Positions 2,234 through 33,615 of a stretch of 39,382 nt of DNA are shown one piece after another. The notes beneath the pieces were generated by a model that was given only the letters and a program-made list of their open reading frames with translations, searched no databases and had not been told where the DNA came from. The position numbers and the translations under genes are program-made. The stretch lies in the IMG/VR virus record IMGVR_UViG_2923296884_000001; one strand, 5' to 3'. The stretch is from a virus (taxonomy: Duplodnaviria; Heunggongvirae; Uroviricota; Caudoviricetes). Position 1 is the stretch's first letter; every line of letters starts with the position of its first letter.

Positions 2234-3343
2234 TCACTCTGTTTCTGCTATCCATTCCGGGATTTTTGCCTCAAGCTCAAGCTGCGTGGTAAAGCCGCTG
2301 TTATCGATGGTGTGCTCGGCTTTTGCAATAATCCAGTCCTGATTATCAATCTCGCTTTTAAATCCTGTTACCGTGCCATGCATTTCGGGGTAGAGTTCTG
2401 CACGTCCACGCGCCAGCGTGATGGAGAATGATGCGGCTCCGCGTTGTAGTTGCTGCCACTTTGCCGCCGCTGCGCGTCTTGCTGCCTGCTCGTTCTGATA
2501 AGTCTTGCGTAACACAAACACATTGCCTTCCGCGCCTTCCATATAATCACCTTCACGGCTGCTGCTTTTCTCCTTTTTGGGTTTTGGCGGTTTACGGCGT
2601 TTCACGCTGACTTTTTTCTTTTTCCCGTAATTAAGATCAAGCCAGTAAGCGCGTACCCCCGTATACGCTTCGCGGTCAGCAATGCGGAACTGATGGCGAT
2701 CGCCGCTGCTGCGTGTGATGGCAAACGATGGCAACGGCTGGCCCTGTGCGTTCACGCCACCGCCGGGCATGATGAATAACAGATTACCGCTTTTTACCGT
2801 GGTGATTGCGCCCAGCATTTCTGCCATGCGCGTAAGGAAGGACATGTCGCTTTCTTCGGTCTGGTCGGCGTGGTCGATTTCGATATCCATCAGCATTTCG
2901 CTGATTTGCGGTTTCAGACCATACCGATGAGCGATGGCGGATACCACACGCTCAACGGTCACATCATGCCAGGACACCTCACGTTTAACGTTAAATTCAT
3001 CCCGAAAATCTGCGCTTCTGGCTGAAACAGTCAGCCTGTCCGGCGGTCCTTCGTGAGCGATTTCATCAACAATGTAAGTGCCTTTTTCTGTCAGCGGTTC
3101 TCCTTTCCAGCCAATGAGAACCGTCAGGCGCGCGCCCCGTGGCGGTAGCTGCAACTGACCATCCGCATCATCCAGCGTGATGGTGAGCTGGTCCGCGTCA
3201 AATCCCCGGTTGTCGGTCAGTGACAGGCTCATCAGGCGCTCTGCCACGCCTGACAGCGTTTTACCCTCCGCGAGAATATCAAAATCCGGCATTTTTACGG
3301 GGTCTGTGCCCTGACTGAGCAATTGCATGGTGGTGTCGGTCAT
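2234..3343 (-). CDS. D: tail protein D (late control gene D)
   Basis: ORF 2234..3475 matches P2 gpD along its length; start refined to the ATG at 3343 (MTDTTMQLL...) preceded by a GGGAGGGAG SD. Confidence 0.9.
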   Translation of the reverse strand: MTDTTMQLLSQGTDPVKMPDFDILAEGKTLSGVAERLMSLSLTDNRGFDADQLTITLDDADGQLQLPPRGARLTVLIGWKGEPLTEKGTYIVDEIAHEGPPDRLTVSARSADFRDEFNVKREVSWHDVTVERVVSAIAHRYGLKPQISEMLMDIEIDHADQTEESDMSFLTRMAEMLGAITTVKSGNLLFIMPGGGVNAQGQPLPSFAITRSSGDRHQFRIADREAYTGVRAYWLDLNYGKKKKVSVKRRKPPKPKKEKSSSREGDYMEGAEGNVFVLRKTYQNEQAARRAAAAKWQQLQRGAASFSITLARGRAELYPEMHGTVTGFKSEIDNQDWIIAKAEHTIDNSGFTTQLELEAKIPEWIAETE

Positions 3344-3500: not shown

Positions 3501-4685
3501 ATGAGTGAAACTCGTTTTCATGGTGCCCGTGTTACGGAAAGTACCGACCTGGTAACAGCGATTAACGATGTTGATTCCAGCGTTATCGGTATCGTGGCAA
3601 CGGCGGATGATGCGGACGCGAAGCTGTTCCCGCTGAACAAGCCCACACTGCTGACCCGCGTCAATGACGTGCTGGGAAAATGCGGGACAACGGGGACGCT
3701 TTATCGTGCGCTTAAGGCCATCGCAGACCAGGTGAGCACAAAGGTGATCGTCGTTCGCGTGGCTGAACACAAAGAAGAAAACGGAAAGACGCAGGATCAA
3801 CTGGTTATCGGTGGTTCTGAATCTGACGGCAGCTATACGGGGATGTATGCGCTGCTTGTTGCAGAGCAGGATGAAAGCATCGGATACCGTCCGCGTATTC
3901 TGGCCGCGCCGGAGCTGGACACGGAGGCGGTGACAAAATCCCTGTGCGTGATTGCGGGTAAAGTGCGCGCGTTTGTGTATGCCACATGTCATGGTTGTAA
4001 CACGATGGCTGAGGCGATTACCTACCGCCAGAAATTCAACGAACGTGAGGTGATGCTCTTATGGCCTGACTTCATCGCCTACAACCCGAAAAGTGGCAAA
4101 AACGAAACGTTCCCCGCGCCTGCTTATGCGTGCGGCCTTCGTGCGTACATTGACCATGAGCAGGGCTGGCACAAATCGCTGTCCAACGTTCCGGTTAAAA
4201 ATGTGCTGGGGATGTCCAGGCATGTGTTCTGGTCGTTACAGGCCGAAGACAGTGATGCCAACAGCCTCAACAACAAAGAAATCACGACCATTATTCGTCG
4301 TAACGGGTTCCGCTTCTGGGGCAACCGCACACCGGAAACGAACGCCTACATCTTTGAGGTGTATACCCGAACCGCACAGGTGCTGGCTGATTCAATTGCG
4401 GAAGCGCAGTTTGAAACCATCGACAGTCCACTGACACCTGCGAACGTGAAGGATGTTATCAGCGCCATCAGAGCAAAACTGGATTCGCTGGTTACTGTCG
4501 GGAAACTGATTGGTGCGGAGTGCTGGTATGACGTGGTGGATAACAGCACCACGGGTTTACGTCAGGGGCGTGTGCGTATTCGCTACAAATATACGCCTGT
4601 TCCCCCGCTGGAAGACATGGAGCTTTACCAGTCGTTTACTGATGAATTCTTTGGTCCCGCATTTGCGGTGCTGGGAGGTGCCTGA
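3501..4685 (+). CDS. FI: tail sheath protein
   Basis: 394-aa ORF with sheath-protein features and P2 gpFI similarity; followed by the tube gene with ATGA overlap. Confidence 0.93.
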   Translation: MSETRFHGARVTESTDLVTAINDVDSSVIGIVATADDADAKLFPLNKPTLLTRVNDVLGKCGTTGTLYRALKAIADQVSTKVIVVRVAEHKEENGKTQDQLVIGGSESDGSYTGMYALLVAEQDESIGYRPRILAAPELDTEAVTKSLCVIAGKVRAFVYATCHGCNTMAEAITYRQKFNEREVMLLWPDFIAYNPKSGKNETFPAPAYACGLRAYIDHEQGWHKSLSNVPVKNVLGMSRHVFWSLQAEDSDANSLNNKEITTIIRRNGFRFWGNRTPETNAYIFEVYTRTAQVLADSIAEAQFETIDSPLTPANVKDVISAIRAKLDSLVTVGKLIGAECWYDVVDNSTTGLRQGRVRIRYKYTPVPPLEDMELYQSFTDEFFGPAFAVLGGA

Positions 4686-5197
4686 TGGCTGTACCAAAAC
4701 ATCTTCGCTTTTTTACGTTGTTTGTGGATGGTGAAAACGAAGTGGGTAAAGTGACATCCGTCACGCCACCCAAACTGACGCGCAAAACCGACAGCTATCG
4801 TGGTGGTGGCATGATGGGGGCGGTAAGTATTGATCTCGGTCTGGACGACTCCGCGCTTGATGCGAGTTTTGTCATGGGGGGAGCTGTTCGTGCGCTGTTC
4901 CTTAAATATGGCGGCACGATTGACGGCACGCTGCTGCGTTTTGCGGGTGAATACTACACCGATGCAGAAAGCGATCTGTATGAAATCGAGATGCGCGGGC
5001 GTGTGACGGAAATTGATATGGGGGAGGCCAAACAGGGCGAAGCCACATCACACACTTACGCTGTCAAAAACACCTACTACAAGCTGAGCGTTAACGATCG
5101 CCCGCTGTGGGAAATCGACCTGTTGAACCACATCTACCGGAAGGACGGCAAGGACATTGTGCCTGACCGCATTCGTTCCGCGCTTGGGCTTGGCTGA
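4685..5197 (+). CDS. FII: tail tube protein
   Basis: 170-aa ORF matching P2 gpFII, in the conserved position after the sheath gene. Confidence 0.93.
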   Translation: MAVPKHLRFFTLFVDGENEVGKVTSVTPPKLTRKTDSYRGGGMMGAVSIDLGLDDSALDASFVMGGAVRALFLKYGGTIDGTLLRFAGEYYTDAESDLYEIEMRGRVTEIDMGEAKQGEATSHTYAVKNTYYKLSVNDRPLWEIDLLNHIYRKDGKDIVPDRIRSALGLG

Positions 5198-5252
5198 TAA
5201 GTAATATGCAGGCGGCGCAGTGCGTCGCCTCTGACTGAAAAGGAGACAACTG

Positions 5253-5627
5253 ATGAAAGATATCGATACTGAAACCCGGAATAACACCGTAGCGGATGAT
5301 GTGACGGCAGGTGAGGATATGGCTGTCGAACGTGGTGTAAAACTTTCCCGGCCAATTGAGCGTGGTGGCGAAAAAATCACATATGTGGAGATCACCGGGG
5401 CTATTGAGCAGGCGGGATCCCTGCGTGGTCTGTCGCTGTCTGATGTGCTGAATCTGAAAGCGGATACCATGTTCACGCTGTTGCCTCGCGTGACCTCGCC
5501 ACGACTGGATGAAGTGATGATTAAAAAAATGTCGTCACGCGATTTTATTCGGTTGTGCGCTGTGGCTGTAAATTTTATGAGCGAGCCAGACTCTGGCGCG
5601 AAGAGCGTGCAGGAGACGGCAGCGTAA
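5253..5627 (+). CDS. E: tail assembly chaperone E
   Basis: 124-aa ORF in the conserved position between tube and tape-measure genes, with an overlapping -1 frame ORF as in P2 E/E'. Confidence 0.85.
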   Translation: MKDIDTETRNNTVADDVTAGEDMAVERGVKLSRPIERGGEKITYVEITGAIEQAGSLRGLSLSDVLNLKADTMFTLLPRVTSPRLDEVMIKKMSSRDFIRLCAVAVNFMSEPDSGAKSVQETAA

Positions 5628-23061: not shown

Positions 23062-24813
23062 ATGATTCAGGACGCTTTTGTGCGCCAGCGTGCGCGGCAA
23101 CTTTACTGGCAGGGTTATCCGCCCGCAGAAATCTCACGTCTGATGGGAATAAACCCGAACACGATTTATGCGTGGAAAAAACGCGACCAGTGGGATGAAA
23201 CGCCACCCGTGCAGCGTGTCACGCAGTCCATCGATGCGCGCCTCATCCAGCTTACTGAAAAACAGAATAAAACAGGTGGTGACTTCAAGGAAATAGACCT
23301 GCTGACCCGGCAGCTTAAAAAACTGCATGATGGCCAGCCAGATGCGACGGCCACAGGAAAGAAAGGCCGGGCGAAAAAACTTAAAAATCATTTCACGCCG
23401 GAACAGATTGCTGCACTGCGGGAAAAAATCATCAGCAGGCTGGAGTGGCATCAGCGGGGCTGGTTTGACTCCCTGACTCTTTGCAGGGAAGCCGGGATAC
23501 GTAACAGGATGATCCTGAAATCCCGACAGATTGGGGCGACCTGGTATTTTGCACAGGAAGCACTGCTGATGGCGCTGCGTGACGATGTGGCGCAACCTTA
23601 CCAGCGTAACCAGATTTTTTTGTCTGCGTCGCGTCGTCAGGCGTTCCAGTTTAAAAGCATTATTCAGAAGGTCGCATCTGAAGTTGATGTGGAGCTGAAA
23701 GGGGGCGATAAAATCATCCTCTCCAACGGCGCAGAGCTGCATTTTCTTGGTACTTCTGCTGCGACGGCACAGTCCTACACGGGCAATTTTTATTTTGATG
23801 AATTTTTCTGGGTCAGTCGCTTTGCTGAACTGCGCAAGGTGGCTGGCGCTATGGCAACCCTCAGCGGACTGCGGCGCACCTACTTCTCCACGCCATCCAC
23901 CGAAACGCACGAGGCATACGCCTACTGGAACGGCGACCGCTGGAACGAGAAAAAGGCCTCGCATAAACGCCAGCGTTTTTCTGTGGACTGGAAAACGCTG
24001 CATAACGGGCTTATCTGCCCCGACCGGACGTGGCGGCAAATTGTCACGCTGGAAGATGTGGTTAATCACGGCTGGAAACACACCGATATTGATGAAATTC
24101 GTGATGAAAACACCGAAGACGAGTTCCTCAATCTCTATATGTGTGAGTTTGTCCGCGAAGGGGAATCGGCATTTAACCTGAATATCCTGATTGGCTGTGG
24201 TGTTGACGGATACGACGACTGGAAAGACTGGAAACCTTTTGCTCCCCGCCCGATGGGGAATCGTCCGGTATGGATTGGGTATGACGCAAACGGCAGCAGT
24301 GGAAACGGCGACAGCGGCGCTGTGTCCGTGGTGGTTCCTCCGGCTGTTCCTGGCGGCCGTTTTCGAACGGTGGAGACGCGACGCGTTCAGGGGCTGGAGT
24401 TTGAAGAACAGGCCAGAGTCATTGAAGAGTTCACGTGTCGCTACAACGTGGAACACATCGGCATTGATGTGACAGGCGGGAACGGGGAGGCTGTTTATCA
24501 GATAGTGAAACGGTTTTTCCCTGCTGCTATTCCGTACACCTTCACGCTGTCATCAAAACGGTCGCTGGTACTGAAAATGCTGCAAATAATGCGTGCCGGG
24601 CGGTGGGAATACGATCGCGCCGAACGCGAGCTGGTCGCGGCCTTTAACGCCGTGCGTAAGGTGAAAACACCGGGCGGCTTTATCACTTACGAAACGGACC
24701 GCGCGAGGGGGATCAGCCACGGCGACCTTGCGTGGGCAACCATGCTTGCTGTCATTAACGAACCAATTGGCGGCGAAGGAGAAAACGAGCGTTTCACGGT
24801 TATGGAGTTCTGA
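23062..24813 (+). CDS. P: terminase large (ATPase) subunit P
   Basis: 583-aa ORF with P2 gpP similarity. Confidence 0.95.
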   Translation: MIQDAFVRQRARQLYWQGYPPAEISRLMGINPNTIYAWKKRDQWDETPPVQRVTQSIDARLIQLTEKQNKTGGDFKEIDLLTRQLKKLHDGQPDATATGKKGRAKKLKNHFTPEQIAALREKIISRLEWHQRGWFDSLTLCREAGIRNRMILKSRQIGATWYFAQEALLMALRDDVAQPYQRNQIFLSASRRQAFQFKSIIQKVASEVDVELKGGDKIILSNGAELHFLGTSAATAQSYTGNFYFDEFFWVSRFAELRKVAGAMATLSGLRRTYFSTPSTETHEAYAYWNGDRWNEKKASHKRQRFSVDWKTLHNGLICPDRTWRQIVTLEDVVNHGWKHTDIDEIRDENTEDEFLNLYMCEFVREGESAFNLNILIGCGVDGYDDWKDWKPFAPRPMGNRPVWIGYDANGSSGNGDSGAVSVVVPPAVPGGRFRTVETRRVQGLEFEEQARVIEEFTCRYNVEHIGIDVTGGNGEAVYQIVKRFFPAAIPYTFTLSSKRSLVLKMLQIMRAGRWEYDRAERELVAAFNAVRKVKTPGGFITYETDRARGISHGDLAWATMLAVINEPIGGEGENERFTVMEF

Positions 24814-25859
24814 TGAGCAGAAAAAATAAAAAAGTGCGCATGAGTTCACGCATTGATCTCGCTGATGCGCTCAGGAAAGAATCATCGCTCAGTGCATTCA
24901 CATTTGATGGTCCTTATCGCCTGACCGGGCATGACCTGCTGGACAATATGTACTGTGCTGATAACGGGCGGTGGTATGAAACCCCGGTGGACTGGTACGG
25001 TCTGGCAAGAGCAGCCCGGCAAACGTCCTGGCATCAGTCTGCGCTTTACTTTAAGCGCAATGTATTACTCGGTTGCTACATCCCGCACCCGCTGCTTTCC
25101 CGGCAGGATTTCTCGGCGCTGGCGCTGGACTGGTTTGTGTTCGGTAACGCATTCCTTGAGCTTCGAAGCAATATGCTCGGCGAACCGCTTAAATTACGGC
25201 ACGCCCTGGCGAAATATATGCGACGCGGAAGCGATCTTGAATCATGGTGGTATGTGCAGGATGGCAAGGACGCGTTTCAGTTTCGTCCTGGCAAAGTGTG
25301 CCACCTGATGAATCCGGATATTAACCAGGAAATCTACGGCATGCCGGAATATCTTGGCGCATTACTCTCGGCCAGCCTTTCTCATTCGGCGGACATGTTC
25401 AGAAAACTGTACTACGACAACGGATCCCACGCCGGGTGCATCATCTACATCGGTGCAGCGCAGGTAAACCGCGAAAGCATGGACTCCCTGAAAGAAACGC
25501 TACAGGGGGCACGTGGTGGTGGTGCGTTTAAAAACGTGCTCATTCATGCGCCCAACGGGGGCAAAGAGGGGGTGCAAATTTTGCCGTTCCAGCAGATCAC
25601 CGCAAAAGATGAATTCATGAATGTTAAGGCGGCATCCCGTGATGATGTGCTGGCTGCGCACCGCGTTCCGCCGCAACTGATGGGGGCGATGCCGGGCGAA
25701 AAAAGTGCGTTTGGCGATGTGGAGAAGGCAGCGCGGGTTTACGCAATTAACGAGCTGATGCCCGTCATGGAGGCTATGAAGCACATCAATGACTGGCTTG
25801 GCGAAGAGGTGATCCGTTTTAACTCTTATGCTCTTCTTGATGAAAAAACAGCCCCGTGA
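24813..25859 (+). CDS. Q: portal protein Q
   Basis: 348-aa ORF with P2 gpQ similarity; start overlaps the P stop (TGATGA). Confidence 0.93.
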   Translation: MSRKNKKVRMSSRIDLADALRKESSLSAFTFDGPYRLTGHDLLDNMYCADNGRWYETPVDWYGLARAARQTSWHQSALYFKRNVLLGCYIPHPLLSRQDFSALALDWFVFGNAFLELRSNMLGEPLKLRHALAKYMRRGSDLESWWYVQDGKDAFQFRPGKVCHLMNPDINQEIYGMPEYLGALLSASLSHSADMFRKLYYDNGSHAGCIIYIGAAQVNRESMDSLKETLQGARGGGAFKNVLIHAPNGGKEGVQILPFQQITAKDEFMNVKAASRDDVLAAHRVPPQLMGAMPGEKSAFGDVEKAARVYAINELMPVMEAMKHINDWLGEEVIRFNSYALLDEKTAP

Positions 25860-25876
25860 TGGGGCTGTCCTTTTTA
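25848..25876. terminator. bidirectional rho-independent terminator between convergent Q and the 174-aa gene
   Basis: ACAGCCCC-gtgat-GGGGCTGT stem-loop with an A-run upstream and T-run downstream. Confidence 0.65.
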
Positions 25877-26398
25877 CCAGAGTTGAACCATTTTCTGGGT
25901 GCCGTCAGGCTTGAGATTATCAATTTCAGAGAGAACGTAATATTGAATGGCTTCACAAACGGTGGTGTAGGGTGAATTACCTTCTTTAAGTGGCACGATA
26001 TTATTATTAACGCGAACCTGTATTTCATCGTTATACATTGCGATCGAAACAGGCGTGTGCACGAACGCGACTTCGCCAGGTGTGTCGTCAACCACCGTTT
26101 CAATACTAAAAGTCAGTTTTCGCTCATCATTGCTGCCCCGTGCTTTGGGGGTAGCGGCAGGGATCTGGGATAAAGGCATTCTGCGAAATCCTTCGGCTGC
26201 TTCCAGTCCGCATGAAACGTAATGCTGGCGATTACCGTCGCTATCTGTCCAGGTCTGTGATGGCAGCTCCAGCGAGATTTCATAAGCATCAACAATGCCC
26301 TGGGCAAGGCGTACAAGCGGGGTCAGATCTTCATTGCGGCGAAAGCTCTCCTTTACCTGCTCCCGTTTTTCTCTTAACTGCTTGTAATTAATGACCAT
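25874..26398 (-). CDS. hypothetical protein (about 174 aa), orphan gene between Q and the early-operon terminator
   Basis: ORF 25874..26437 with start refined to the ATG about 26398 (MVINYKQLREK...) preceded by a GGAGG SD; lower GC than neighbours; no family recognised. Confidence 0.6.
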   Translation of the reverse strand: MVINYKQLREKREQVKESFRRNEDLTPLVRLAQGIVDAYEISLELPSQTWTDSDGNRQHYVSCGLEAAEGFRRMPLSQIPAATPKARGSNDERKLTFSIETVVDDTPGEVAFVHTPVSIAMYNDEIQVRVNNNIVPLKEGNSPYTTVCEAIQYYVLSEIDNLKPDGTQKMVQLW

Positions 26399-26495
26399 AA
26401 GACAGCCTCCATTGATTTCTTTGCTCGTATTTTGCACTTATGAAGTATGGTCGGCAAGGTGCCGTATCGCTGACGCGCTTCGCTTGTCTGCTGCT

Positions 26496-26524
26496 TCGCC
26501 GGGGCATAAAAAATTTATGCCCCG
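26496..26524. repeat. 29-bp perfect palindrome GCCGGGGCATAAA-aaa-TTTATGCCCCGGC
   Basis: Read directly from the sequence; lies in the ~500-bp noncoding stretch upstream of the 174-aa gene. Confidence 0.7.
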
Positions 26525-26930
26525 GCTCTCCAGCTCCTGTATCAATCAGATAATTTCACGACGCCTTCCAGTTTATCGCCACCATCGACGGTCAGACTCT
26601 TACGCAATTCCACCGCGTTGACTGCATGTTCTCGCTGCCTCAGTGCGATTTTGACGGCCTTACCTTTCACCCCATCAAATCAAAAGCCCTCACGCCTTTT
26701 TCATGCTCAGCGTGAGAAATATGGCCATTCTGTTGTGTCTCTGCGACATCGTTCAGGGAATGCTATTTACCCCCTGAAACGCGGGCTGTTCCCCCGTCAC
26801 CTGCGCGCAGAAAAAGCGCGTTTTTTTGTGCACGCACGGATCCTTGACGGATCCAGCCGCCATGCGGGCCGGAAGGGTAAAAAGTCGTTCAAAAAAATTG
26901 TGCAAATTTGTGCACTTTTGTGCAAACAAA

Positions 26931-26956
26931 AAGCGCCCCTGAGGCGCTTTAGTGTT
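26931..26956. terminator. terminator of the leftward early/accessory operon (bidirectional stem-loop)
   Basis: AAGCGCC-cctga-GGCGCTT flanked by A/T runs, about 30 bp after the last minus-strand gene; preceded by three TTGTGCA direct repeats (26899-26930). Confidence 0.6.
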
Positions 26957-26984
26957 TTATAGGTTGTGTATATTTGCTGGGTCC

Positions 26985-27248
26985 TTATCCTGCTGTGCTT
27001 TCAACTGATGAGGGGAACAAAATCTTTTCATCAAACCCTGCATTCATATCATGGACAGCAACACACCAATCCATTGACGAACGATTATCAAGAGCCTCCA
27101 TGATTTCATCCATGCGGCGTAGGTCATACAGGTAAATGCTTTTATCGCCAATGGTGTAAAAACCAATTTTTTTCGGTGATGGACAGCGATCAAGAACGTC
27201 CTGTAATTCGCTCAACCATGCTTGTTCTTTTTTTGTCAAAGTTGCCAT
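26985..27248 (-). CDS. hypothetical protein (87 aa)
   Basis: Start ATG at 27248 with strong SD GAAAGGAG; packed TGAtATG against the upstream gene. Confidence 0.6.
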   Translation of the reverse strand: MATLTKKEQAWLSELQDVLDRCPSPKKIGFYTIGDKSIYLYDLRRMDEIMEALDNRSSMDWCVAVHDMNAGFDEKILFPSSVESTAG

Positions 27249-27249
27249 A

Positions 27250-27690
27250 TCACTCTCCTTTCCCATGAAGCATAGCGGCGCGGCAGGCGTTCCATATTTC
27301 GGCAGCAATATAGCGCTCGCTATCGGTTAATTTGTACGTGGAAACATAGCCAGAGAGCATTTCTACGTTTTCCGGAGTTGCTTCTTCCGGCACTACCGGC
27401 GCTGGCAAGGCAGCGTGATAGTAGAGTGGCATAGTTTTGTACAGTGGTTCGCCAGGACTTCCGTCAGCCTGATTCCATTCTTCAACCCAGGCATCAACAA
27501 CCGCTTTGCTGGTTGATACATGTTCTTCTGAATCTACATTTTGTCCTGATATACAGAACATAACTGCCTCTGCTTCCAGCGATGCCAGAGCAATTTCATA
27601 AGCCCGACGCTCAATATTGTCTCGGACGTCCAGGCTGCCTATGCGCTCTTTGATTTCTTTAATCAGTTCTTTGTCGGTAAAAGTGGTCAT
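27250..27690 (-). CDS. hypothetical acidic protein (146 aa)
   Basis: Start ATG at 27690 (MTTFTDKEL...) with SD AAAGGAG. Confidence 0.6.
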   Translation of the reverse strand: MTTFTDKELIKEIKERIGSLDVRDNIERRAYEIALASLEAEAVMFCISGQNVDSEEHVSTSKAVVDAWVEEWNQADGSPGEPLYKTMPLYYHAALPAPVVPEEATPENVEMLSGYVSTYKLTDSERYIAAEIWNACRAAMLHGKGE

Positions 27691-27691
27691 A

Positions 27692-28006
27692 TCAATCTCC
27701 TTTGGTACCAATGTTTACAGCCTGGTAAGCCTCTTTGAGCACCCAGTCAACAGCGTCTTTCCATGCTCCGGTTTCGACTGGCGGATTCTCACGCTTTACC
27801 TGTTCATAGAAACGCACCGCTCTAACCAGTCCATCTGACGGTTTTGCCTGTAGTGCAGCCTGAGCTATGCGGTATGCCTGGAGCATACGGGCGTCGTTGA
27901 TATCCATTCCGAACGGAATTTCTGATGATTGTGACTCTGCATCTTCAAGCCTGGCAATTTCTTTACGTAAGAAGTATTTCAACTCTTGTTTCTGTTTTCT
28001 GTTCAT
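27692..28006 (-). CDS. hypothetical protein (104 aa)
   Basis: ATG at 28006 overlaps the upstream stop (ATGA). Confidence 0.6.
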
Positions 28007-28335
28007 GCGTTTTTTTCCTTTTTGTCTGTCACTTCTTTCCTGATAATTTCATTGCACAAATCCACGCACTCATTGCAGATGTAAACAGACGGTCCGGCAA
28101 TCACCTTTGTGACTTCGTACTGGGATTTATTGCAGAAGCTGCAATAAACCGTCTTCTCGCCTGAAGTCCATGTTTTGCTGGTTTCGCCAGACATCAGTTG
28201 TTTGAGGTCTTTTTCACGACGAAGAACTATCTGGCCACATTCAGCTATTTTTTGGATGTTGACATTTTCTTCTTTCGCCAGCGCTTCCATCCGCTCAATC
28301 AGTCGCTGCGCTTTTTCTCTGTCAATGTGTTGCAT
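28003..28335 (-). CDS. small protein with a C-terminal ClpX-type C4 zinc finger
   Basis: C-terminus [36 protein letters not shown] closely matches the ClpX N-terminal zinc-binding domain (CSFCGK...[15 protein letters not shown]); strong SD AAGGGGGA. Confidence 0.7.
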
Positions 28336-28398
28336 TGTGTCCCCCTTGTTTATGCTCCCGGGTTAAAGTCATCAGGGCGGATGCGCCCTGATGTTGTG

Positions 28399-28710
28399 TT
28401 ATTCGGGAAATAACGCCCGGATATTTCCGGCCATCTGACTGGTTATCTGTGCGGCTGATACTGGCTGTGACGCGGGGCGTTCTGTCCTGGTTTGTGTCAT
28501 TGATAACGCCTCATCATCAGCCCATGCAGCCAGTCGGTAAGCCTCTGCCGGATTCATTTTCAGTAGTGCCAGCCCGGCCAGAAAAGCCACGCGTTGACCA
28601 CTTTTGCGGGCTTCTGGTGTAAGGCTGTCCAGCCAGGCGCATGCTTCGCCTTCGTTCTTGACGGCGGCGGGCTTCAGATAGAAACTTATCCGTCTGGTTG
28701 GTGTCGTCAT
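28399..28710 (-). CDS. parR: ParR-like partition adaptor (103 aa)
   Basis: ATG at 28710 four nt after the parM stop, SD AAGGAG; N-terminus ISFYLKPAAVKN...VAFLAGLALL resembles plasmid R1 ParR (IAFKLNPDVN...AALTAGLALY). Confidence 0.7.
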   Translation of the reverse strand: MTTPTRRISFYLKPAAVKNEGEACAWLDSLTPEARKSGQRVAFLAGLALLKMNPAEAYRLAAWADDEALSMTQTRTERPASQPVSAAQITSQMAGNIRALFPE

Positions 28711-28714
28711 TGGT

Positions 28715-29674
28715 TTACTCCTTGTCCATTGCGTACAGCCCATTAACCAGAGCAAACTGTGGCACCCCGTCCGCGATGAAAGTCGCATTAACTCCGCAGG
28801 CTTCGCGGATAGCGGGTGCCACAATCTCTGCCCCGCCACCGACAACCATCACCCGCCCGTAACCCGAAAAACCCGCCAGCGCGCGGATCACGCGTTGTTT
28901 CAGTGTTTCTTCCTTTTCACGAATAACCGCCATCAGGCTGGCGTAATGCGCGTCATTGTGGATGTGCTGGCGCAGCCAGGCTTCATCATGGCGATGTTCG
29001 ATAATGGTATTGGCGATGTGGTGACTGGTACGCATACCGTTAGTGGCCATCACCGACAGTACGGCATCGGCCATCAGGGAAACGCCTACGTGTGGATCGC
29101 AAAACACCTGGCTGATACCTGCCAGTTGTCCCTGAACCTTTGCCACATCCAGCGTGGTTCCGCCTAAATCCACAATCAGCAGGGATTCAAACGGACTCAT
29201 GTCAGCCAGTGCCTTAAAGCCAGCCGGAATGGATTCAGGCATAACCCGCACGTTACGGATAGTGAATGCTTCGCCGTTCTGGTACTCCACCGGGCGCATA
29301 ACGTTCGCTTTTTTGCGGTTGATGTTGGCCATGTCCGGCTGTGCGTTTGTGTCGAAATACTCGCTCAGTGGCAGGGTGACAACCACATCCACCTCCTGTG
29401 GCGTGATGCCTGATTTGACCAGCGCGTGATGAATGGCGATTACATTCACATCGCTGTACTGGTATTGCGTGTCGGTCGTCTGGACAAAGCGATCGCTAAC
29501 CGGATCAAAACCATAGCGCACGCCATCAAGCATGTAGTTCGCGGGCTGCATGCCACCGAACGGCGCAGACCATTCCGACTTGAAGCTGTTCGGGCTGATG
29601 GCGTTGCGGCGTTCGCCATTCTCAGTCCATGCCAGCTTGATGTTGGTGGAGCCGTCGTCGATACAAATTTTCAT
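28715..29674 (-). CDS. parM: ParM/StbA actin-like segregation ATPase
   Basis: 319 aa; MKICIDDGSTNIKLAW... with full-length similarity to plasmid R1 ParM (phosphate-1 motif DDGSTNIKL, VMPESIPAG, LIVDLGGTTLD, VVGGGAE). Confidence 0.9.
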   Translation of the reverse strand: MKICIDDGSTNIKLAWTENGERRNAISPNSFKSEWSAPFGGMQPANYMLDGVRYGFDPVSDRFVQTTDTQYQYSDVNVIAIHHALVKSGITPQEVDVVVTLPLSEYFDTNAQPDMANINRKKANVMRPVEYQNGEAFTIRNVRVMPESIPAGFKALADMSPFESLLIVDLGGTTLDVAKVQGQLAGISQVFCDPHVGVSLMADAVLSVMATNGMRTSHHIANTIIEHRHDEAWLRQHIHNDAHYASLMAVIREKEETLKQRVIRALAGFSGYGRVMVVGGGAEIVAPAIREACGVNATFIADGVPQFALVNGLYAMDKE

Positions 29675-29705: not shown

Positions 29706-29816
29706 TTTACGGGATTCTGAAATCCCGTTTTTGCCTGTTTTGTGTGCGCTTCATATATCGCGGCGCGTTTTTTGCTCATTTACGGGATTTGTGAATCCCG
29801 TTTCTGTCTGTTTTTT
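29706..29816. repeat. two ~39-bp direct repeats, each with an ACGGGATT-nnnn-AATCCCGT palindrome; parC-like centromere or replication origin candidate
   Basis: Copies at 29706-29744 (in the A-parM gap) and 29779-29816 (within the last codons of A), 73 bp apart. Confidence 0.7.
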
Positions 29817-32573
29817 GTTTCCACTGGTCAGGCCACCCCGCAGCAGGTCTGCTTTGCGGCGGGCACGTTCAGTGGTTTCACTGATTCTCTGTGCGTGCTC
29901 TGCGTCGCGGATGGCGCGCAGCATGTCAGAAAGCACGGTAACGGGGGGGGTCATGGTGTTCTGGTCCTGCTGAAGTGTGGATGCCAGACGTGCGGCGGCT
30001 TCGGGGTCTGATGCCCCCAGCTGTTCCAGATAGCTGGCGACCGGGTTATGGCGGATCTCCGTGCTGCTTACGCCGTGATTACGGCTCAGGCGCTGCCAGA
30101 GCTGCGTGATTCGGCTGTCCGGGCGGGTATCCGGTTTGCGTACAATTTCAAATCCCTGCGGTGCAATGATGCTGCCGTCAACGTACAGGCTGCCGCCCCG
30201 TAACAGGTGCTGCATCTGCTGTTCACCGATATGCAGGCCGAGAGATTCGGCAGATTCCCGCCATTCTTTAGCGAGTAATTCGTGGTTATCAGGCAAAGGC
30301 CGCTGCTGTTTGCGGCTCTGTGTCCAGCTCTGCATTTCATCACTGCTGTTTTTTGCCTGTTTGTCACGCAGCGAACGCATCAGCGCCCGGCGTTCGTGCC
30401 GTTTCAGTGAGCGCATCCATTCGTTCACGTCAACGCCGTCAGGAAGCTGCGGCCACGGTGCTGGCCGTTCTTCCGGCTGTTCTGTCCCGTTGTTGTCCGT
30501 TTCCTGTACACGGGGACAGTTATTGCCACGAGTCCAAGGGGCGGCAGGGCCGCCCTGAAGGTCAAAACCATTTTCGCGGGCGCTGTCTTCCGCTTCCGGT
30601 TTACGTCTTACCAGCTTCCAGTTATCCGGATGCGTGCACACACGGGAGGATTCCCCGATGAGTGGTGACCAGATCCCGTAAATCTGTACGCTCTGTTCGC
30701 CGTAATCGTTCAGCTCATCTGCGAGGTCGTAGGCGGTGCGAATCAGGTAGTCTTTGCGTGGAACAAGTACGCCGCCCTGTTTTTCAATGTAGGTGGCAAA
30801 ACACCCGGCATCGGCGGCAGCGAGTACCGCATCCATTGCGTCATCTTTCAGTCGTTGCGGGCCTTCCGGGTTGCGTGCCATCTGGCTGGCAAGGCGGCGC
30901 AGTTCACGCCACACCTGACGGGAGGGGATGCCAAAGAACTGGAACTGGCGGACCCGATGAAGGCGCGCCCAGCCGATGGCGCGCTCCACACTCTCGGCCA
31001 TTGATTTTCCGGTTTCGTGGTCAACGCGTGGCTTGCCCGTTTTCGGGTCGATGCCATCCACGGCGCGGCTGTCCAGGTTCTTTCCGATGTAGGTCGCGAT
31101 ATAGCTGGTTGGTGTGCCTTTTGAGCCGTCGACATACTCCGCCTTAAAGCGCGGAGTAATATCATTGCCCAGCTCGTGGCGGTCTTCCTGAATGGCAATA
31201 TCGCGGGTATGGGACACAATGGTGTCGATTTCTTCCGGATGAGCAAAGACCATCATATGCCAGTGCACGGTGCCGTCATGGTGAGGCTCCACCGTGCGGA
31301 TGCCATACCAGCGAAGACCGTCGCGGTTCAGTTTTTTGCGGACCGCCGCAAAAAACGTGTTAACCAGGTAATAGCTGGAGTCGCGCATGGTGGCCCCGTT
31401 CCATTTGGGATTCGGATGACCGTTCTCTGTTGTGGCGTGGTATTTTGACGGGCAGGTGACAGTCAGAAACACCGCTTTGTCGCCACGGGCTTCGGCCAGA
31501 AGTTCCAGCCCCTTCATGGTGGCCATCATTTCTGCCTTACGGTGAACCGGGTTACTTACTCCCGCGTAATACACTGTCTCGAGATCAATCGTGAACCCGT
31601 CTTCGTTTTCCAGCATGAAACTTTTCAGGAAATCGCGTGTTTTCTCGCGCTGTGCGCGAAACTCGCTTAACGCGTCCTGGCTCAGATAGGGTGATGTTTT
31701 TCTGGAAACCAGACAGGCGGCGCGGAGTTGTTCTTCTCTCCACTCGCAACGTAACAGCCACAGTTTGCGTTTCCACCATTCCGCACAGGTCAGGCGAAGG
31801 ACTGCGCCCGGCAGCAGCTCCGTGTCCGGTTCGTTCCTCCGGTTTTTATCTGTTGTCAGTGCGTCATAATGTGGAGGCATGATGTGCAGGTGTAACGCCA
31901 TGCGGGCCAGCATCTGATACGCCTTCAGCGTTACATCCATGGTCAGCTCGCCATCTCTGGCACCAAAGCCATCACAGAGTTTTTCGAAGGTGCTGCTGAA
32001 CATCGCCGCCGTCATGGTGGCCAGCGTCTGTATCTGGTGTTTGTTGAGCTGCGGCAGGTAAAGCAAATCGTCCAGGCGTTCGCGTCCGGCAAGGGAGCGA
32101 TAACCCGGTGTCAGCCAGTGTCCGTCAGTGCGATCCAGACGTTCGAATATTTTGCGCAGGGTTCCGCGTGCATAGCGTTCCGCCTGCCAGCTCTTTTTGC
32201 CTTTCCGGCGATCGGCTTCCTGTTTTTTGCGCAGGAAGGAGAGGTGGCGAATAAGCGGATCGCGCAGATAGGACGGCAGCAGGCGCAGCGAGGCCATGGC
32301 TTCATCCACCGCGCCACGTGCCTGTTTTCTGGCTTCTCTGGCCAGTGTGATGGTTTTGTCCTGTTTTTCCTGTGCGTCCAGGCTTTTATTAATCAGGTTG
32401 CCCAGCGGCGTGGCGGAGAACGCCGCATCAGCCATTTCCTGGCGGCGCTCGTTCTCTGCCCGGTAGGCATCCAGCCAGGAGGAAAGCTCGGATTCAGGAG
32501 CGGGGATTCCCGTTCCTTCACGACCCACTGCGTGGCGCGGTTGTTGCCAGTCCCTGATGTACTCTGCCGTCAT
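29751..32573 (-). CDS. A: replication initiation protein A (rolling-circle endonuclease)
   Basis: 940-aa ORF with P2 gpA-type features; longer than P2 gpA (761 aa). Confidence 0.92.
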   Translation of the reverse strand: MTAEYIRDWQQPRHAVGREGTGIPAPESELSSWLDAYRAENERRQEMADAAFSATPLGNLINKSLDAQEKQDKTITLAREARKQARGAVDEAMASLRLLPSYLRDPLIRHLSFLRKKQEADRRKGKKSWQAERYARGTLRKIFERLDRTDGHWLTPGYRSLAGRERLDDLLYLPQLNKHQIQTLATMTAAMFSSTFEKLCDGFGARDGELTMDVTLKAYQMLARMALHLHIMPPHYDALTTDKNRRNEPDTELLPGAVLRLTCAEWWKRKLWLLRCEWREEQLRAACLVSRKTSPYLSQDALSEFRAQREKTRDFLKSFMLENEDGFTIDLETVYYAGVSNPVHRKAEMMATMKGLELLAEARGDKAVFLTVTCPSKYHATTENGHPNPKWNGATMRDSSYYLVNTFFAAVRKKLNRDGLRWYGIRTVEPHHDGTVHWHMMVFAHPEEIDTIVSHTRDIAIQEDRHELGNDITPRFKAEYVDGSKGTPTSYIATYIGKNLDSRAVDGIDPKTGKPRVDHETGKSMAESVERAIGWARLHRVRQFQFFGIPSRQVWRELRRLASQMARNPEGPQRLKDDAMDAVLAAADAGCFATYIEKQGGVLVPRKDYLIRTAYDLADELNDYGEQSVQIYGIWSPLIGESSRVCTHPDNWKLVRRKPEAEDSARENGFDLQGGPAAPWTRGNNCPRVQETDNNGTEQPEERPAPWPQLPDGVDVNEWMRSLKRHERRALMRSLRDKQAKNSSDEMQSWTQSRKQQRPLPDNHELLAKEWRESAESLGLHIGEQQMQHLLRGGSLYVDGSIIAPQGFEIVRKPDTRPDSRITQLWQRLSRNHGVSSTEIRHNPVASYLEQLGASDPEAAARLASTLQQDQNTMTPPVTVLSDMLRAIRDAEHAQRISETTERARRKADLLRGGLTSGNKKQTETGFTNPVNEQKTRRDI

Positions 32574-33248: not shown

Positions 33249-33426
33249 GATGTGGCCTCTCTGTTAGTTAGTTTTGAAAACTCACCATCCAGAGGTTCCA
33301 AGCTCGGGGTGGTGAGACGTACAGGGTTGGAACTACCGGCTAACAGAGGACCCGGCCCAGCTGATGCTGGCCCTGTACGCCCCACCATAATTCTGACGCG
33401 AAAAAGACGTGGCGATACGGCACGCA

Positions 33427-33448
33427 CAAAAAAACCGCTGGCGCGGTT
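33427..33448 (-). terminator. rho-independent terminator candidate (minus strand) between the SPFH module and the replication module
   Basis: Minus-strand AACCGC-gcca-GCGGTT followed by TTTTTTTG. Confidence 0.45.
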
Positions 33449-33615
33449 GTGCGCTCTGTTAGTCTGCGGGGTTCCAATCCCGGCACCCGTTTTATGAGGT
33501 GCAGCGGAAATGTAACCTGACTGATTGCGGCATGGCAAGCGGTTTTTTTGTGAGAACGGCATACTAAAAAATCCTGATACTGCTCCGGCCAGCGGTTTTC
33601 ACTGGCCGGGTTTAA

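Follow-up and report, generated by a model that had tools for sequence, protein, structure and literature searches.

The viral record IMGVR_UViG_2923296884_000001, a stretch of 39,382 nt referred to here as the window, is a P88-like E. coli prophage of the P2 family (genus Xuanwuvirus). On its minus strand, at 28003-28335, is a gene for a protein of 110 amino acids (aa) in which a zinc-binding domain (ZBD) of the ClpX type, without the AAA+ module of ClpX, follows an N-terminal helical hairpin. As far as sequence comparison goes, the domain appears to be a known one and its two-domain setting new and phage-specific, and an anti-ClpX role is plausible; the gene has been kept by purifying selection, and its product may act in trans as a decoy of the ClpX N-domain. 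An earlier note on this DNA, made from the letters alone, had pointed out the open reading frame (ORF) and its likeness to ClpX; its coordinates are exact, although it did not give the strand. Coordinates of this and the other features discussed are collected in Table 1.

A ClpX-type domain behind a helical hairpin

Assignment of the C-terminal domain rests on profile, sequence, and structure comparisons. Against PF06689 (zf-C4_ClpX; gathering threshold 27 bits) the protein scores 64.7 bits (E=6.8e-18), with residues 64-99 falling on profile positions 2-38/39. A phmmer search of all PDB chains matched ClpX only, including 1OVX (E=6.9e-20) and 2DS5 (E=2.5e-19), both of the E. coli ZBD, and aligned residues 53-104 to ClpX 9-60; over the core (residues 62-101 against E. 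coli ClpX 12-51), 31 of 40 residues (78%) are identical. C65, C68, C87, and C90 align to the zinc ligands of ClpX and have the same spacing, C-x2-C-x18-C-x2-C. This four-cysteine spacing, whose loss would have told against the earlier note, survives in the alignments to the PDB entries and to E. coli ClpX. An AlphaFold2 (AF2) model built from nine family sequences (mean predicted local distance difference test score, pLDDT, 79) places beta-strands at residues 78-80 and 85-87 and a C-terminal helix at 88-109, the treble-clef-like beta-beta-alpha fold of the ClpX ZBD, with a predicted pLDDT of 82-91 for this domain. In Foldseek the predicted ZBD superposes on 2DS5_A with a root-mean-square deviation of 0.7 A over 40 columns and a TM score (target) of 0.88.

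There is no AAA+ module, as the earlier note had said: the ClpX equivalogs TIGR00382 and NF003745 score 51 and 49.5 bits, far below their cutoffs of 370.75 and 359 bits, and match at model positions ~3-54 only, and the protein ends nine residues past the ZBD. By score, ligand spacing, and predicted fold it belongs to the Pfam ZBD domain family, and it is not a ClpX unfoldase proper. The description of its C-terminal 40 residues as a near copy of the ClpX domain holds in part. The domain is indeed 40 residues long, with the fold, core, and pocket of its ClpX counterpart, but a charged tail of nine residues follows it, and there are nine substitutions, several at positions that are invariant in ClpX.

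The hairpin is a conserved domain specific to this family, and the protein is thus a two-domain one and not a bare ZBD. In the family alignment E17 and E23 are invariant, and K8, A9, A20, E22, K29, L38, R39, R40, D43, L47, and G50 are nearly so. At E<0.03 neither Pfam nor any other PHROG matched the N-terminal 57 residues, and no known fold was found for the hairpin: Foldseek searches of PDB and BFVD matched the ZBD part only. When residues 1-57 were compared by phmmer, exhaustively, with 1.84 billion cluster representatives, 11 matches came back, namely ten short proteins (29-119 aa) and one of 1212 aa that is repetitive and coiled-coil-like. Nine of the short ones are 41-96% identical over the hairpin, and the six sequences read among them belong to the family or are frameshifted or truncated copies; P0005 is a full-length family member (90% identical). 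Between the two domains is a linker whose end, SGEK, resembles ClpX residues 9-11 (SGK); in the Salmonella protein P0019 it carries an 11-residue insertion. The hairpin had been missed by the earlier note, as had the incidental nature of the parR link and the existing catalogue entries discussed below.

Two short motifs outside the ZBD were considered and rejected. The SspB-like ZBD-binding motif is LKxh (PMC7226468), and LKQL at residues 44-47 might at first glance be a site for docking to the protein's own ZBD or to that of ClpX, but relatives have E or D in place of its K, and a helix is predicted for this segment. A conserved C-terminal ClpX degron was likewise rejected, the tail not being conserved across the family.

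For conservation within the ZBD, 35 distinct proteobacterial ClpX cores were compared with 11 distinct family cores; positions are given in the ClpX numbering of the literature. The ClpX ZBDs of E. coli, Vibrio, Photobacterium, and Dryocola are identical to each other at 40 of 40 positions. Among the 11 family members, the four cysteines (C14, C17, C36, C39) are invariant together with S15, F16, K19, V24, I28, A29, G30, E38, N44, and I47; position 46 is I or V, and the remaining hydrophobic positions are exchanged only conservatively. F16 and I46, kept in the window protein as F67 and I97, form a hydrophobic side pocket of ClpX that overlaps the lambda O site and is also used by SspB, RssB, and trigger factor (PMC7804408). 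Elsewhere the family departs from residues that ClpX hardly ever changes, and part of the ZBD surface, judged from these alignments, is either freed from ClpX-specific constraint or retuned.

Age, distribution, and annotation of the gene

Sequence comparisons indicate a real gene that is old and under purifying selection; its carriers are temperate phages and phage-plasmids of E. coli and Salmonella. Against relatives of ~50% identity (from D6, PhiR41_1, a Salmonella prophage, and a metagenomic variant), the ratio of nonsynonymous to synonymous substitution rates (dN/dS) is 0.10-0.33 on the ZBD and 0.15-0.32 over the whole gene, with synonymous sites near or at saturation. Over 47 aligned codons, the DNA is 62% identical to E. 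coli clpX, and 36% identical at third codon positions. When 5,426 complete E. coli genomes were searched with the gene by blastn, 219 matched, all at loci that are annotated as this phage gene and none at clpX. Given this divergence and the confinement of the matches to loci of the phage gene, a recent capture from the host clpX was rejected, and the gene is neither a recent pick-up nor an assembly chimera. ClpX phylogeny gave no clue to the donor: proteobacterial ClpX ZBDs hardly vary, and that of the phage stands at the same distance (31/40) from those of gamma- and betaproteobacteria. A scan of genome contigs returned no family member, the scan being swamped by clpX genes; the proteobacterial clpX loci in it supplied the ClpX cores compared above.

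A few database copies (P0010, P0018, P0125) are truncated or frameshifted, which would suit a non-functional remnant, that is, a decaying 5' fragment of a captured clpX still open by chance. This explanation is effectively refuted, however. The full-length architecture is kept in relatives only 43-50% identical, with dN/dS well below 1; there is a good ribosome-binding site, and the gene is translationally coupled to the next one; and the N-terminal domain is novel, not derived from clpX. In addition, the P88-type gene (at least 95% identity) is found in 110 of the 5,426 complete E. coli genomes (~2%, UTI89 included), and the divergent, ~50%-identical type on some 105 plasmids of the same set.

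In PLSDB, 144 records match, most of them non-mobilizable, and in 94 the match covers at least 80% of the protein; the full-length matches listed are mainly on replicons of 83-117 kb. Phage-plasmids with the gene include the P1-like D6 and PhiR41_1/CMS-2020a (~108 kb), where it lies among early accessory genes of the ea22/eaA/ead type. A 128-aa member occupies the same slot as in the window, between gpA and gpQ, in two different P2-like prophages of Salmonella.

The protein matches three separate PHROGs, one of them, PHROG 6797, over its full length (E=2e-58), with unknown function as the listed function. That of PhiR44_2 is 100% identical to it, and P88 gp19 is 96% identical; a 2-kb query around the gene is 99.4% identical to PhiR44_2 and 97.4% to P88. 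No PHROG matches the three antisense ORFs of the plus strand (27925-28164, 28175-28366, and 28198-28413), which were taken as spurious. Two names are in public use for the family: "ClpX C4-type zinc finger protein," current in RefSeq for E. coli genomes, and "carboxylate--amine ligase," borne by P88 gp19 (4308-4640 of the P88 stretch), D6 orf93 (4980-5300 of the D6 stretch), and many NCBI records. The second was rejected, since it requires a ligase domain of the ATP-grasp or GCS2 type, and the sole Pfam match is PF06689; it looks like an annotation artefact propagated by similarity in RefSeq and GenBank. The gene is thus already catalogued, both in the annotation of public records and in a published list of what the P2 hotspot carries (PMC9122126). 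No functional study of it, or of any phage or stand-alone ClpX ZBD protein, was found in the full-text literature, a coverage from which most subscription journals are missing.

Free-standing ZBDs look like a recurring phage theme. Proteins of PHROG 12435 (listed as "protease") and PHROG 5259 likewise carry a free-standing ClpX-type ZBD and lie in early or accessory regions of temperate phages, but their ZBDs are only ~38-50% identical, and they have no PHROG 6797 hairpin; they are probably independent captures or very old splits. Examples come from two Pseudomonas phages. PP9W2 gp081 (2495-2692 of its stretch) is a bare ZBD of 65 aa; its gene is in the nin region and has a DksA/TraR-like gene on one side and ninB on the other. 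In Pseudomonas phage Alize, a 109-aa protein with an N-terminal ZBD, annotated "C4-type zinc finger protein," is encoded two genes from the integrase (2986-3315 of its stretch). Caulobacter phage Cr30 and Bacillus phage G gave further ZBD matches.

What the protein may do

If the protein has a function connected with ClpX, a precedent is available in the behavior of the ClpX N-domain itself. This domain dimerises on its own (PMC7226468; PMC5415555); the adaptors SspB and RssB and the substrates MuA, FtsZ, and lambda O depend on it, whereas ssrA tags do not (PMC5415555; PMC7804408); purified E. coli ZBD supplied in trans inhibits RssB-dependent degradation of sigma-S by ClpXP (PMC7226468). Because the isolated ZBD dimerises and blocks RssB-dependent degradation in vitro, and because adaptors and substrates require the N-domain, the most economical reading of the phage protein, by analogy, is that it acts in trans as a decoy of the ClpX N-domain, competing for ZBD-dependent adaptors and substrates. 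Competition with host ClpX for adaptors or substrates, already suggested in the earlier note, is plausible, and we put the decoy forward tentatively, as somewhat short of an even chance.

Such a decoy would dimerise as the isolated ClpX ZBD does and would offer the ClpX docking pocket to adaptors (SspB, RssB, UmuD-type tails) and to N-domain-dependent substrates (lambda O-like initiators, MuA, FtsZ). Having no motor, it would titrate these clients away from ClpXP, and N-domain-dependent substrates would be selectively stabilised while ssrA-type degradation was left untouched. The hairpin could add avidity, oligomerisation, or a second binding specificity of the phage's choosing. The client might be a phage protein in need of protection, sigma-S through RssB, or an antitoxin of the kind that sets off abortive infection when ClpXP degrades it.

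Several points weigh against a simple decoy. It would need concentrations comparable to those of its clients, and a promoter scan of the region did no better than shuffled controls. With the N-terminal hairpin conserved, the ZBD alone is not the whole function. The family also departs from ClpX at invariant or nearly invariant positions: G18 becomes N, H22 becomes Y, E23 is variable, R/K25 becomes T, I, E, or M, and D37 becomes N. Residues 23, 25, and 27 are in the first beta-strand, the one reported to pair with the SspB tail in the 2DS8 structure. Because of these departures client specificity may be changed or lost. Finally, the residues that are retained also build the fold core and the dimer interface, so their conservation alone is no proof of client binding.

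The main rival takes up the same departures. The ZBD could conceivably serve as a zinc-stabilised module for dimerisation or protein binding, with the hairpin as the effector, directed at some other host or phage target, and the likeness to ClpX ancestral only. Proteins other than ClpX do have domains of the zf-C4_ClpX type, an example being cyanobacterial sigma-70 factors, with the domain as an accessory (PMC11119718); the phage family has changed several surface positions at which ClpX never varies, and its hairpin is conserved as expected of a functional domain; and the genes beside it in the cassette encode modular proteins of Ea22 type and unknown function. More drift than this ZBD shows would be expected of a generic dimeriser, however: despite saturated synonymous sites it keeps 31 of 40 residues, including the exposed pocket residues F16 and I46, and also K19, E38, and N44. 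The Pseudomonas phage ZBDs, only ~50% identical to that of the window, suggest more drift in those. We consider a ClpX-independent use possible, if on the unlikely side.

The dimerising property could be exploited in another way. The phage ZBD might pair with the ZBD of a ClpX protomer and so plant the hairpin atop the ClpX ring, either blocking the N-domain layer or, as a new docking site, bringing a target of the phage's choosing to ClpXP in the manner of an adaptor. Dimerisation is constitutive in the ClpX ZBD (PMC7226468; PMC5415555), all hydrophobic positions of the family ZBD are identical or conservatively replaced, and a conserved hairpin on a flexible linker is what might be expected of a tethered effector. 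A similarity of 31/40 to the enterobacterial host ZBD fits the need for pairing, but is the same to betaproteobacterial ClpX, and hence gives no signal of host tracking. Also, on the ClpX hexamer the ZBDs form a trimer of dimers at high local concentration, making invasion by a free monomer unfavourable unless it is co-translational. On these grounds heterodimerisation seems unlikely.

The decoy proposal can be set beside several known systems. With the ZBD of E. coli ClpX the phage domain shares fold (0.7 A to 2DS5), Cys4 spacing, 31 of 40 residues, the F16/I46 pocket, and the hydrophobic core. It differs in following an unrelated hairpin, with no AAA+ ring; in the substitutions G18N, H22Y, R/K25T, and D37N; and in being phage-borne, with saturated synonymous divergence. 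Closest in mechanism is the recombinant isolated ClpX ZBD (Micevski et al., 2020, PMC7226468), which is motor-free and in vitro dimerises, binds RssB, and inhibits adaptor-dependent degradation, the mechanism proposed here. That is a laboratory construct, however, while the phage protein appears to be a natural version with a second domain added. Anti-adaptors are a further parallel: IraD, IraM, and IraP (PMC6546054; PMC7226468) are small proteins that stabilise sigma-S by intercepting RssB, with the protease itself not inhibited, and IraD and the ZBD dock to overlapping RssB sites (PMC7226468). Unlike the phage protein, the Ira proteins have no sequence or fold relation to the ZBD, are not mimics of it, and are specific for RssB.

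Phages also have inhibitors of other host AAA+ proteases: T4 PinA and T7 gp4.5 act on Lon, and lambda CIII on FtsH. These too are small early or accessory phage proteins that reprogram regulated proteolysis in the host, but they are not copies of a protease domain. The recombinant isolated ClpX ZBD was reportedly also used as a competitor in vitro by Wojtyra and colleagues in 2003. No ClpX-directed phage mimic was found in the searchable literature.

A wider proposal would be that enterobacterial temperate phages and phage-plasmids have domesticated the ClpX docking domain, tuning its surface and arming it with a hairpin, as a soluble decoy or as a hitch-hiker on ClpX that rewires ClpXP targets during lysogeny or induction, and that, with the ZBD-only proteins of Pseudomonas, Caulobacter, and Bacillus phages, this is a general and overlooked strategy. 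We offer it as a conjecture with perhaps one chance in three of holding. If it is true, this would be, as far as the literature search went, the first case of a virus mimicking the domain by which a bacterial AAA+ protease recognises its targets. ClpXP controls sigma-S, FlhDC, FtsZ, SOS proteins, several antitoxins, phage lambda O, and MuA, much of this via the ZBD. With a ZBD that is natural, mobile, and trans-acting, phages would have a compact tool for shifting ClpXP decisions, and researchers a ready reagent to tell N-domain-dependent from pore-dependent recognition by ClpXP in vivo. Any effect on the stress response, on motility, or on the activation of toxin-antitoxin systems would have relevance for clinical strains, since the gene is present in ~2% of complete E. 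coli genomes (UTI89 included) and on about a hundred phage-plasmids. If it is unrelated to ClpXP, the protein is a small annotated domain protein of modest interest; the gene is already annotated, and a domain-only paralog is in itself unsurprising.

The cassette and its surroundings

The ZBD gene heads four tightly packed minus-strand genes, overlapping or abutting, that share one terminator (Table 1). Their GC content is 44-47%, compared with 53-60% in the parMR and gpA flanks; the low value is typical of a moron. The scan for promoters found no more sites than in shuffled controls, and transcription of the cassette therefore probably enters from parMR and/or the early operon. The stem-loop between parR and the ZBD gene is no canonical terminator, since no U-run follows it; it is possibly an element for mRNA processing or stability, or a weak attenuator.

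Table 1. Features of the window around the gene for the ZBD protein.
Feature	Position	Strand	Basis and remarks
Gene for ZBD protein (PHROG 6797), 110 aa	28003-28335	minus	ATG 28335, TGA 28003-28005; ORF read from sequence
Shine-Dalgarno AAGGGGG, 5 nt 5' of the ATG	28341-28347	minus	read from sequence
N-terminal helical hairpin, codons 1-48	28192-28335	minus	AF2, helices 6-23 and 27-48, pLDDT 75-91
Flexible linker, codons 49-61	28153-28191	minus	pLDDT <50 at residues 52-59; length varies in family
ClpX-type ZBD, codons 62-101	28033-28152	minus	PF06689; 1OVX/2DS5; 31/40 identity; Foldseek
Zinc-ligand codon C65	28141-28143	minus	
Zinc-ligand codon C68	28132-28134	minus	
Zinc-ligand codon C87	28075-28077	minus	
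Zinc-ligand codon C90	28066-28068	minus	
Charged C-terminal tail VTDKKEKNA, codons 102-110	28006-28032	minus	model extends ZBD helix to 109
Cassette gene 2, 104 aa	27692-28006	minus	Ea22-related PHROGs 26213/660; its ATG overlaps ZBD-gene TGA (ATGA)
Cassette gene 3, 146 aa	27250-27690	minus	PHROGs 5117/660/60, Ead/Ea22-like; ATG 27690, 1 nt past gene 2 stop
Cassette gene 4, 87 aa	26985-27248	minus	PHROG 1714 (unknown function); ATG 27248; coding sequence length as in PhiR44_2
Intrinsic terminator, 9-bp stem then TTTTTGTTT	26930-26950	minus	closes four-gene cassette
GC-rich stem-loop, 10 bp	28370-28393	minus	between parR stop and ZBD gene; no U-run after it on coding strand
parR	28399-28710	minus	Pfam Plasmid_stab_B; P88 annotation; parMR directly upstream of ZBD gene
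parM	28715-29674	minus	Pfam StbA_N/ParM_N; P88 annotation
GpA replication endonuclease	29751-32573	minus	
Terminase and portal	23062-25859	plus	

The location given in the earlier note, in an accessory island between parR and the portal/cos side, is correct. This interval, gpA-gpQ, is a hypervariable hotspot of P2-like phages, occupied by tin/old in P2 and by many defence systems elsewhere (PMC9122126; PMC13586616). According to the E. coli survey, a partition system occupies this locus in about a quarter of P2-like phages, and the locus table includes the arrangement "StbA + Plasmid_stab_B + zf-C4_ClpX + hypothetical"; the portion of that table examined has 43 mentions of zf-C4_ClpX and 489 of StbA (PMC9122126). 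The earlier note had allowed that the protein might prove to be a known phage replication accessory factor. Its place in a variable hotspot and the unknown function of PHROG 6797 do not bear this out, and homologs are also found in D6 and PhiR41_1, in ea22 accessory regions that have no relation to P2 replication.

A functional link to parMR was also considered and rejected. Because family members occur without parMR in the two kinds of Salmonella P2-like prophage and in D6 and the ~108-kb phage-plasmids, where no partition genes are adjacent, the parMR neighbourhood is incidental. The 489 mentions of StbA against 43 of zf-C4_ClpX in the examined portion of the hotspot table agree with this. 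No partner gene is conserved across the contexts of the family.

A hotspot that is the main site of anti-phage systems in P2-like phages (PMC9122126; PMC13586616) suggests that the gene, alone or with its three cassette partners, could be defence or exclusion cargo that shields the lysogen, for example by denying an incoming phage a step that depends on the ClpX N-domain. The arrangement of partition genes, zf-C4_ClpX, and hypotheticals is indeed among the hotspot cargo in the part of the published table covered (PMC9122126), but cargo without a defence role, such as partition systems and toxins, is found in the hotspot too (PMC9122126). PADLOC-DB 2.0 gave no match at E<=0.01 to the ZBD protein, to any of its three partners in the cassette, to ParM or ParR, or to two nearby ORFs, and the phage-plasmid homolog is among ea22-type early genes, not in a defence island. 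Phage Mu needs ClpX to remodel the MuA transpososome and is the kind of phage that such a mechanism might affect. All told, a defence role seems quite improbable.

Some other features of the window were noted in passing. Both genes that follow the ZBD gene (27250-28006) match PHROG 660, and UTI89 has an annotated "XF1762 family protein" at the third position of the cassette. On the cos-proximal side, ~550 bp (26440-26985) without a convincing ORF separate the cassette terminator from a 187-aa minus-strand ORF (25874-26437); this region has several hairpins, including a perfect 13-bp inverted repeat (26498-26526) and AT-rich palindromes (26894-26919).

On the other side, an actin-type plasmid partition pair, ParM/ParR, sits in an integrating P2-like prophage. 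Just upstream of parM is a 20-nt palindrome, ACGGGATT-N4-AATCCCGT, in two copies 73 bp apart (29709-29728 and 29782-29801), one of them inside the 3' end of gpA; these may be a parC-like ParR site or a terminator pair. Transcriptionally upstream of gpA there are two Rfam matches at gathering level, both on the minus strand: C4 antisense RNA (RF01695, 33305-33392, 78.5 bits) and the Hfq-binding RNA isrK (RF01394, 33428-33502, 72.4 bits). Together (33305-33502) they are a c4 antisense immunity RNA module of the P1/P7 type in a P2-family prophage.

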